13,455 nt of DNA from a virus: UHGV virus genome UHGV-0114979, one strand, 5' to 3'. Shown one piece after another: positions 9,628 through 10,655 of the stretch; within the stretch, counting starts at the first letter, position 1, and each line of letters opens with the position of its first letter. The translations under genes and the position numbers were made by a program. Below the pieces are notes generated by a model. The model saw nothing but the letters and a program-made list of their open reading frames with translations. It was not told where the DNA came from and did not search any database.

Positions 9628-9666
9628 GAAATCTCCTAAATAATATTATTTATATTTAATGGCATA

Positions 9667-9694
9667 GGATGATAGCACATAGACAAACTATCAT
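9667..9694. promoter_or_regulatory. 8-bp inverted repeat (GATGATAG/CTATCATC) upstream of the acyltransferase gene
   Basis: GATGATAG (9667-9674) and CTATCATC (9687-9694), separated by 12 bp, lie 40-67 bp upstream of the acyltransferase start on the minus strand. Could be an operator or a 5'-UTR structure. Confidence 0.25.
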
Positions 9695-10350
9695 CACCAT
9701 GTGCTCAACAATGCTGACTAGCATTACTGTGTTAATATACAGTGCATATGGGAAGTGAGTTATTTGGTTCACAAACTAGATAAAGAATGCATTAAATTAA
9801 CTGTCAAGCTGGAGATTCTTTGCGTACTAGTATCTTACAGCTACGTTATTGAGATGTGATGAAGGCAATGCCAGGTAGCTATTACATAATTCGTGCTAAG
9901 GTGGTTGTCACTTTGCCAAGCGTATAGGTAATTCTTTTAGAACAGTAGATGGTGAAATTCTGGAGGGTGAGGTGGACGTGAAGGGGATTCTGACACATCT
10001 GATTAACCTGGTCACCGATGACGATAACCAGGGAATTTAATCAGGAGAACTTTCCATCAAGCCAGTCCGCCCACCACTGCATCATTTCTCTGCGCTTAAC
10101 GTAGCGGATGTCTCACTATCACACGGTGATGGTCCATTGCTGCTTTGAGGAATGGATAGAGAACTGAGGATAAAAAGATATCCCAAAACCCAAAATCTCA
10201 TCTTTAGGATTTGCAGAAAGGGAGGCGTGAACAGATACCTGCGCATGAAGACGGAACTAGTCCAGATGTGATATTTGTGGTGATCACATACATCATCAAC
10301 GATGCTCGTTATGGTGAGTTTGATGACTACCCGCTGAAGTGAAAATTGTG

Positions 10351-10646
10351 TTGTGTACCAAATTGCGTACCAAACTAAAATCACAAATTATGAAACCCTT
10401 GTTCATGGCGGTTCTCAGGGGTGTTGCGCGTAATCGTGAAAGAGGAAGGTAGGTTGTTTATCTGTGCCTGTCATTGTCTAGCATTGTCCACTGTAGTTAA
10501 TTAACTGTCTGTTATAACTCGGAAAACAACCCTTTTTTAACCTGAGTATGTCTACGAACGTCAAATATAGTTGTTTACTGTGCGCTGTTGTCCATGTGAT
10601 ATTGTGTACCAGATGTGTACCAAACCATTATTTCTGAGCGTACCAA
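10351..10646 (+). repeat. Five same-orientation arm-type repeats (consensus GTACCAAA, mostly TGTGTACCAAA) upstream of int; candidate attP arms
   Basis: GTACCAAA at 10354-10361, 10366-10373, 10616-10623 and 10639-10646, plus GTACCAGA at 10605-10612. Three copies are preceded by TGT and two by GC. They form two clusters about 250 bp apart, bracketing a segment that holds a perfect 12-bp palindrome AGTTAATTAACT (10494-10505). The last copy ends 9 bp before the int ATG. Confidence 0.5.
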
Positions 10647-10655
10647 ATATTATTT

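Follow-up and report, generated by a model that had tools for sequence, protein, structure and literature searches.

The phage DNA examined here, UHGV virus genome UHGV-0114979, is a single stretch of 13,455 bp (hereafter the window) in which an acyltransferase open reading frame (ORF) and an integrase ORF are separated by a gap of 1028 bp (9628-10655; Table 1), and we analyse this gap as a candidate phage attachment site (attP). A preliminary description, made from the sequence alone, had drawn attention to about 1 kb without a convincing ORF at this place, and the observation holds over the whole gap: it has no intact gene, no transfer RNA (tRNA) gene and no match to Rfam, although it does contain the remains of three genes and the beginning of sbcB (the Escherichia coli gene for exonuclease I) in a copy of 15 codons. 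The description of its flanks as phage late genes on one side and int/xis on the other was likewise borne out, with P22-type injection proteins, the Ant antirepressor, a tailspike and an acyltransferase of the Acyl_transf_3 family to the left, and an integrase and an AlpA/Xis-like gene, after which the early-left genes come, to the right.

Table 1. Features of the window in and around the gap between the acyltransferase and integrase genes
Feature	Position	Strand	Basis or remark
Injection proteins, P22-type	71-3150		Profile matches (Pfam/PHROG)
P63C-domain protein			Profile matches (Pfam/PHROG)
immI region: Arc-like genes and Ant antirepressor gene	Ant gene 5252-6184		Profile matches (Pfam/PHROG)
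Tailspike with P22 head-binding domain	6363-8564	+	Profile matches (Pfam/PHROG)
Acyltransferase (O-antigen acetylase-like moron), left border of the gap	8635-9627	-	Pfam Acyl_transf_3, E=1.9e-20
AT-rich 5' leader, presumed promoter region of the acyltransferase gene	9628-9899	-	Read from the sequence; promoter inferred
Fragment A: 3' end of a humD/UmuD'-like gene, 47 codons and stop, 5'-truncated	9900-10040	+	tblastn
Fragment B: last 18 codons and stop of an argW-type IntS, KRREMMQWWADWLDGKFS	10041-10101	-	tblastn
intS remnant of 52 bp common to JNE082640-type (argW) and mEp234/Sf101-type (sbcB) modules	10050-10101		blastn boundaries and alignment
Fragment C: decayed humD/UmuD'-like gene without ~44 N-terminal codons; in-frame stop and frameshift	10092-10342	+	tblastn
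P arm: two direct arm-type repeats, GTGTACCAAA and GCGTACCAAA (predicted)	10353-10374 (starts 10353 and 10365)	+	76 and 64 bp before the core
attP core, 13 bp, crossover region	10429-10441		Five-way alignment and published core
Copy of the first 15 codons of sbcB, MTGTDKQPTFLFHDY	10430-10474 (ATG at 10474)	-	tblastn with lysogen SbcB, 93% identity
P' arm: three direct arm-type repeats (predicted)	10604-10647 (starts 10604, 10615 and 10638)	+	+175, +186 and +209 from the core
Tyrosine integrase, 2851/Sf101 (sbcB) type	10656-11834	+	Pfam Arm-DNA-bind_3 64.8 bits, Phage_integrase 61.6 bits
AlpA/Xis-like excisionase candidate	11815-12006	-	PHROG 66 'excisionase and transcriptional regulator', E=1.9e-8; Pfam AlpA and HTH_17 weak

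The attP core, its repeats and the phage-borne start of sbcB

At the centre of our reading of the gap is the 13-bp sequence CGTAATCGTGAAA, which is identical in the window, in phages mEp234 and Sf101, at the left prophage junction (attL) of the E. coli O145:H28 lysogen RM12581 and in sbcB of E. coli K-12, and on both sides of which the phage and host sequences part in the alignment. The preliminary description had proposed a search for a core identical to the bacterial attachment site (attB), which is what this match to K-12 sbcB gives, and polymerase chain reaction (PCR) across the prophage junctions, to which a right junction (attR) observed in silico at dacD/sbcB corresponds. The minus strand of the core, TTT CAC GAT TAC G, encodes the residues F-H-D-Y of SbcB, the aspartate of which is a catalytic residue of the Exo I motif of exonuclease I. 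The same 13 bp are the published attP of Sf101 and 2851, and integration at the 5' end of sbcB was confirmed by PCR and sequencing (PMC4159516); the attP of phage 2851 was taken from this Sf101 paper. Additionally, a 'prophage attachment site (type 2851)' is annotated in the GenBank record of mEp234, where it occupies the equivalent of ~10430-10442.

Around this core the motif GYGTACCARA occurs five times, as against 0.06 matches expected by chance in the window, and all five copies are on the plus strand and inside the gap, two before the core and three after it. Their offsets from the core (-76, -64, +175, +186 and +209) are kept in the window, mEp234, APC_JM3.2, HK140 and the prophage of O157 MB9-1, and in Sf101 the two left-hand repeats lie one base nearer to the core (-75, -63). 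At attL of RM12581 only the three right-hand repeats are present, beside int, and attB of K-12 has no repeats. A relaxed search that allowed one mismatch gave only scattered extra sites, for instance at 9763-9772 on the minus strand, and these were not counted into attP. Given the number and spacing of the repeats, their distribution over attP, attL and attB, and the Arm-DNA-bind_3 domain of the integrase, we infer that they are the P and P' arm-type binding sites of Int.

The integrase itself falls into the P4-like class, with an N-terminal Arm-DNA-bind_3 domain (DUF4102 type) and a C-terminal catalytic domain, both above the Pfam cut-offs, and the motifs ARLSELR, HDFRR and LGH...SVY, seen by eye in its translation, follow the tyrosine recombinase pattern R...HxxR...H...Y. 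Its gene starts 215 bp past the core and reads away from it, so that the preliminary description was right to set its orientation apart from that of P22 int and to liken it to P4-type integrases. In the mechanism that we propose, the N-terminal arm-binding domain would bind the GYGTACCARA repeats and the catalytic domain would exchange strands within the core, that is, in the F-H-D-Y codons of exonuclease I. The third P' repeat stops 8 nt before the ATG of int, and there is no evident Shine-Dalgarno sequence upstream of this gene; the two features together, at 10638-10655, hint at int autoregulation or at an unusual initiation of translation.

The P arm, core and P' arm are contiguous in the window, which is the un-integrated arrangement, and in lysogens the phage is split exactly at the core. 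On one side, attL, with the sbcB body, the core and the equivalent of the window from 10429 onward, including int, in one piece, is present in RM12581 and in many complete E. coli genomes. On the other side, attR of the same phage was found in ERR1622028 (Logan), GCA_032647785.1 and GCA_034537655.1, in which the phage sequence runs from 10458 of the window back to 6309, and in the short contig L022, in which it runs back to 7082, with 99.3-99.9% identity over the four. The host DNA beside the phage in these contigs is K-12-like and terminates with dacD and 49 nt from the start of sbcB; host and phage matches overlap at exactly 10429-10458, and the longer contigs run back through sbmC, yeeA and tmaR to cobU. 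That this phage is found both with attP and with attR lends indirect support to Int-dependent recombination at the site. Altogether, the att region is present in 585 of 5426 complete E. coli genomes.

The 45-nt sbcB-like stretch that the phage carries can be compared with the N-terminus of K-12 SbcB, MMNDGKQQSTFLFHDY (translated by eye from the aligned minus strand), and with RM12581, in which the annotated sbcB coding sequence reaches 46 nt into the prophage and starts MTDTDKQPTFLFHDY. Because the stretch has diverged from the host copy and is found in every examined phage genome with this integrase module, it is, to judge by this comparison, phage-borne and not host DNA abutting the element. 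The preliminary description had named host genes or a complete tRNA inside the gap as signs of two unrelated elements next to host DNA; there is no tRNA, and the sbcB-like stretch resembles host DNA only superficially. Integration would swap the first 16 codons of host sbcB for 15 phage codons while keeping the ORF intact, and the sbcB body of the lysogen would be fused to a start codon, an N-terminus and an upstream region that are all supplied by the phage. Since this upstream region is then necessarily phage-derived, the expression of sbcB in lysogens must, on the predicted arrangement, depend on the phage DNA that lies upstream.

We thus conclude that the gap is very probably the sbcB-type attP of a P22-like (Lederbergvirus-type) temperate phage with a 2851/Sf101-type tyrosine integrase, accompanied by gene debris, in a contig of un-integrated phage DNA. 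The equation of the region with attP, as first put forward, holds for its right-hand ~300 bp (~10343-10655), in which the functional site would occupy ~10350-10650; the left-hand ~700 bp (9628-10342) appear to be outside attP and consist of the leader and pseudogene fragments. As the target is the protein-coding gene sbcB, no tRNA signature is to be expected at the site, and ARAGORN reported no tRNA or transfer-messenger RNA (tmRNA) in the whole window, in agreement with the earlier inspection by eye.

Gene remnants and an exchange of integration modules

The left part of the gap begins with the leader of the acyltransferase gene, whose ribosome-binding site, AGGAG on the complement of 9633-9637, is separated from the ATG by 5 nt. 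This leader occurs only with this acyltransferase: it is full-length in only two complete E. coli genomes, at 99.8% identity in the one listed, and a search of 9628-10049 against the phage collection, distant mode included, gave no match.

Next come the three fragments, all of them pseudogene remains. Fragment A, with an in-frame stop codon immediately upstream, is 66.7% identical (tblastn, E=6e-19) to an intact 106-aa humD-like gene of E. coli 19SZHZ869Rt (locus L010, 2390-2710), which sits in that genome between an acyltransferase gene and intS. Fragment B is 94.7% identical over 10041-10097 (tblastn, E=1.7e-9) to IntS of E. coli JNE082640; DNA homology to the prophage with intact intS runs to 10101, so that 61 nt of that integrase are left. 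Fragment C matches HK140_028 over 10172-10342 (tblastn, E=1.3e-14), with a frame-3 alignment that spans residues 45-86, and has a weak match to a UmuD-like PHROG; in HK140, an intact humD-like gene ends at the end point of this fragment, just before the P-arm repeats. A match to the C-terminus of SbcB within the same interval (11 aa, E=0.065, 10211-10243, minus strand) was dismissed as due to chance, being antisense to the far stronger humD match.

These humD/UmuD'-like genes behave as a moron beside integration modules, intact in some phages, decayed in others and present as two fragments in the window. Those starting with MGF(S/P)SPA (L010, 2390-2710; HK140, locus L008, 2182-2571) adjoin the integrase or attP in both argW- and sbcB-type modules.

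The remnants also mark a boundary between two kinds of relatives. By blastn, E. coli JNE082640 matches the window over 8500-10101, and mEp234, Sf101 and the prophage of O157 MB9-1 match it over 10050-10900. JNE082640 and FORC_041 have the same tailspike, acyltransferase and spacer at ~99% identity up to 10101, and then continue into an intact intS, the tRNA-Arg gene argW and yfdC. In mEp234, Sf101 and the O157 prophage, the match starts exactly at 10050, and to the left of it lies a different variant of the intS downstream sequence, of the phiv205-1 type. Both parents thus have nothing in common but the 52 bp at 10050-10101, which are likely to be the site of a homologous crossover; this makes them, on these alignments, probably the interval in which an Sf6-like argW integration module gave way to the sbcB module. 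In such an exchange, the acyltransferase-intS-attP(argW) module would have been replaced by an attP(sbcB)-int module through a crossover in the 52-bp remnant, and integration would have been retargeted from argW to sbcB.

The intS fragment accompanies the sbcB-type attP-int module both in lambdoid siphoviruses (mEp234, the O157 prophage) and in P22-like podoviruses (Sf101 and the phage of the window). One could go further and propose that fragments of the 10050-10101 type are a recurrent homologous linker for swaps of integration modules and that, at the same time, with the promoter and start of sbcB replaced by the phage, exonuclease I comes under phage control in lysogens, a joint proposal that we put forward as a conjecture and believe to be rather unlikely as a whole. 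If it were true, swaps through the intS linker would retarget a given cassette of tailspike and O-antigen modification from argW to sbcB. Two further observations concern phiv205-1: its tailspike region is broken by transposase genes, and in the 'general stress protein' gene beside its intS (locus L006, 15474-15601) a perfect 72-bp stretch recurs at an offset of 56 bp and so constitutes a 56-bp tandem repeat.

Free phage DNA, tandem prophages and other explanations

The window is identical to a whole metagenome contig in the ENA (ERZ1755950 NODE_661; 13455 bp, coverage ~6.6x), and scaffold_882 of a metagenome assembly, ERZ28587101, is 100% identical to 6609-13455 and includes the same uninterrupted attP. 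We regard the window as un-integrated phage DNA, from a virion or an excised circular form, and a free genome as far likelier than a tandem prophage. The preliminary description had named these two origins side by side; its proposal of an attP form stands, and a tandem origin has become the much weaker of the two. In a tandem arrangement, the window would be the internal junction of two prophages at sbcB, at which an attP-like site has been regenerated in the chromosome. There is precedent for this in the chromosomes of O157:H7 MB9-1, Show KS 470-1 and STEC799, which have an uninterrupted attP and three att places each; in MB9-1 (NZ_CP040107.1 2009824-2022272, core at locus 5380), attP has tail-fibre and nleG7 genes that belong to one lambdoid prophage on one side and int of the next prophage on the other. 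However, an uninterrupted attP is present in only these three of the 585 complete genomes with the att region, which gives a tandem junction a low prior, and the site is intact in all five phage genome records examined. The window, moreover, is a metagenome contig of low coverage in which the site has phage genes to its left and right and host DNA is absent, and its late genes and int side fit the map of a single Sf101-like genome. A tandem junction is therefore improbable. The adjacency of late genes to int, from which the idea of an att junction had started, is not diagnostic by itself, since Sf6-like relatives have int next to the acyltransferase gene and attP on the far side of it.

A different concern is that the continuity over the core might be an assembly artefact in which the attR and attL ends of a single lysogen were joined, a concern fed by the modest coverage of the metagenome contig and by the fact that other contigs of the phage break inside the spacer, at 10080, 10095, 10390 and 10411. 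Yet the exact core of 13 bp is all that the phage arms have in common with the host flanks in sbcB (the same is assumed for attL against attR), and a false join at the core is unlikely because 13 bp are shorter than the usual assembly k-mers. With the same join present in scaffold_882 at 100% identity, and the joined sequence collinear with real phage genomes, an artefact deserves next to no credence.

We also considered that a functional gene or a small RNA might have escaped annotation in the gap. The obvious candidate, which is also the longest ORF there, with 100 aa (10082-10384, minus strand), is open both in the window and in O157 MB9-1, and at the homologous place in Sf101 a hypothetical protein, Sf101_0017, is annotated. 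A 1-nt indel, however, shifts and truncates the frame in mEp234 and Sf101, the ORF has no match in Pfam or PHROG, and the humD homology on the opposite strand accounts for the conservation of the DNA. Searching Rfam with 9500-10800 returned nothing even at E<=1, and over the whole window the sole match at the gathering threshold, the sar RNA at 5214-5281, is outside the gap. A promoter and terminator scan of 9400-10800 gave three promoter-like sites, where 4.7 are expected in shuffled sequence, and no terminators, so that neither count exceeds that of shuffled sequence. The 100-aa ORF was rejected as a gene on account of its broken frame, the missing family match and its position antisense to a humD-like pseudogene, and we consider any hidden gene or RNA in the gap very improbable.

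The reading of the gap as an sbcB-type attP in un-integrated phage DNA, with a module exchange to its left, has several points against it. Neither the gap as a whole nor attP within it has a match to the IHF consensus WATCAANNNNTTR. The scan of 9400-10800 found no consensus sigma-70 promoter for int, the rebuilt sbcB or the acyltransferase gene, and none of its three promoter-like sites is placed where a promoter of one of these genes would be expected. From a 13-kb contig alone, DNA of a free phage and the point at which two tandem prophages meet look alike. As regards the order and direction of the exchange, the alignments are compatible with either possibility, namely that the window type is ancestral or that it is a recombinant through the 52-bp segment.

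Exact-pattern searches for the joint specific to the window gave no occurrence in the GTDB species representatives and none in IMG/VR, and one metagenome contig of 2.8 kb, identical to 7555-10390, stops before the core and is uninformative on the form of att. In the same vein, the combination of this tailspike-acyltransferase cassette with the sbcB module is absent from the phage, complete E. coli, GTDB-representative and IMG/VR collections; it is present in a few draft assemblies and metagenomes.

Relation to known phages and features of the neighbouring genes

The closest parallels are Sf101, mEp234 and 2851. Window positions 10050-10900, which comprise the attP arms and the first 245 nt of int, have 96.0% identity with Sf101 and 97.8% with mEp234; for 10429-10900, the DNA identity with 2851 is 98.7%. 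With Sf101, the window has in common the P22-like order of tailspike, O-antigen acyltransferase (minus strand), non-coding stretch, int (plus strand) and xis (minus strand), as well as the core and five arm-type repeats at near-identical spacing; the authors of the Sf101 study had themselves remarked on large non-coding stretches around the attachment site (PMC4159516). The differences lie to the left: the tailspike/acyltransferase cassette is another one, with an acyltransferase of 330 aa here in place of the 390-aa OacB of Sf101, and before 10050 the spacer follows the JNE082640 type, in which the intS remnant is longer and a humD-like fragment is added.

The argW modules of Sf6 and HK620 resemble the window in the order of their genes: a P22-like tailspike comes first, next an O-antigen acyltransferase on the minus strand, and last a P4-like integrase transcribed away from its attP. 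Of the Sf6 architecture, tailspike-oac-intS-attP(argW)-xis, which is also that of JNE082640, the window keeps the last 18 intS codons. While in the Sf6 type int separates the acyltransferase gene from attP and a tRNA gene is targeted, here a different integrase is encoded on the opposite strand and the target is a protein gene. A tRNA-targeting attP in the style of Sf6, P4 or CP4-57 would hold the 3' portion of a tRNA or tmRNA gene, and such a site is not indicated, as neither ARAGORN nor Rfam detected a gene of this kind in the window; the argW-type attP of the relatives lies beyond the 5' end of intS, in a region that is absent from the window.

P22 integrates into a tRNA gene. Its attP has the same genome position as in the window, with the tailspike and then the O-antigen modification genes on one side and int-xis on the other. 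The orientation of int differs: the P22 gene, on the minus strand, is transcribed towards attP and its 3' end comes within 30 bp of the core, whereas int of the window begins 215 bp past the core and is transcribed away from it. The way in which the target gene would be preserved has its own parallel in phage 21 and the element e14 at icd, whose attP carries a replacement end of the target gene, so that the host ORF stays intact. By analogy, the phage of the window would duplicate the displaced end of its target ORF, with 15 phage codons for 16 host codons and a full-length sbcB annotated in lysogens. The difference is that the 5' end, with start codon and promoter, would be replaced here, and not the 3' end.

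Since the integrase type, the attP core, the target gene and the gene order have already been described for 2851 and for the P22-like serotype-converting phage Sf101, our finding is in itself an ordinary one. For an undescribed P22-like phage with an O-antigen acyltransferase, it establishes sbcB as the site of integration and defines the core of attP, which is of little import beyond annotation, and it accounts for an empty stretch of 1 kb as attP and pseudogene debris in a contig of un-integrated phage DNA. The arm repeats, the phage-borne N-terminus of SbcB with its overlap of the F-H-D-Y codons and the intS scar may not have been spelled out before, although no literature search was made on them, and they could help to annotate the many sbcB prophages, Stx phages included, and to design PCRs across the att junctions.

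Some features of the neighbouring genes remain to be mentioned. The 3' ends of int and the AlpA/Xis-like gene, which converge, have 20 bp in common (11815-11834), and an identical overlap is present in mEp234, Sf101 and E. coli prophages. On the left, the sar antisense RNA (Rfam RF00262, 94 bits, minus strand) is full-length and lies beside the Ant gene and the Arc-like genes, which indicates that the P22-type immI region of this phage is complete. Base composition also changes along the window: GC content falls from ~0.45-0.50 in the phage backbone to 0.29-0.39 over ~6600-9800, an interval that takes in the receptor-binding part of the tailspike, the acyltransferase gene (~0.29-0.32) and the leader. 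This suggests a horizontally acquired cassette for host range and O-antigen modification, and the low-GC segment is ~99% common to the argW-integrated prophages of E. coli JNE082640 and FORC_041.

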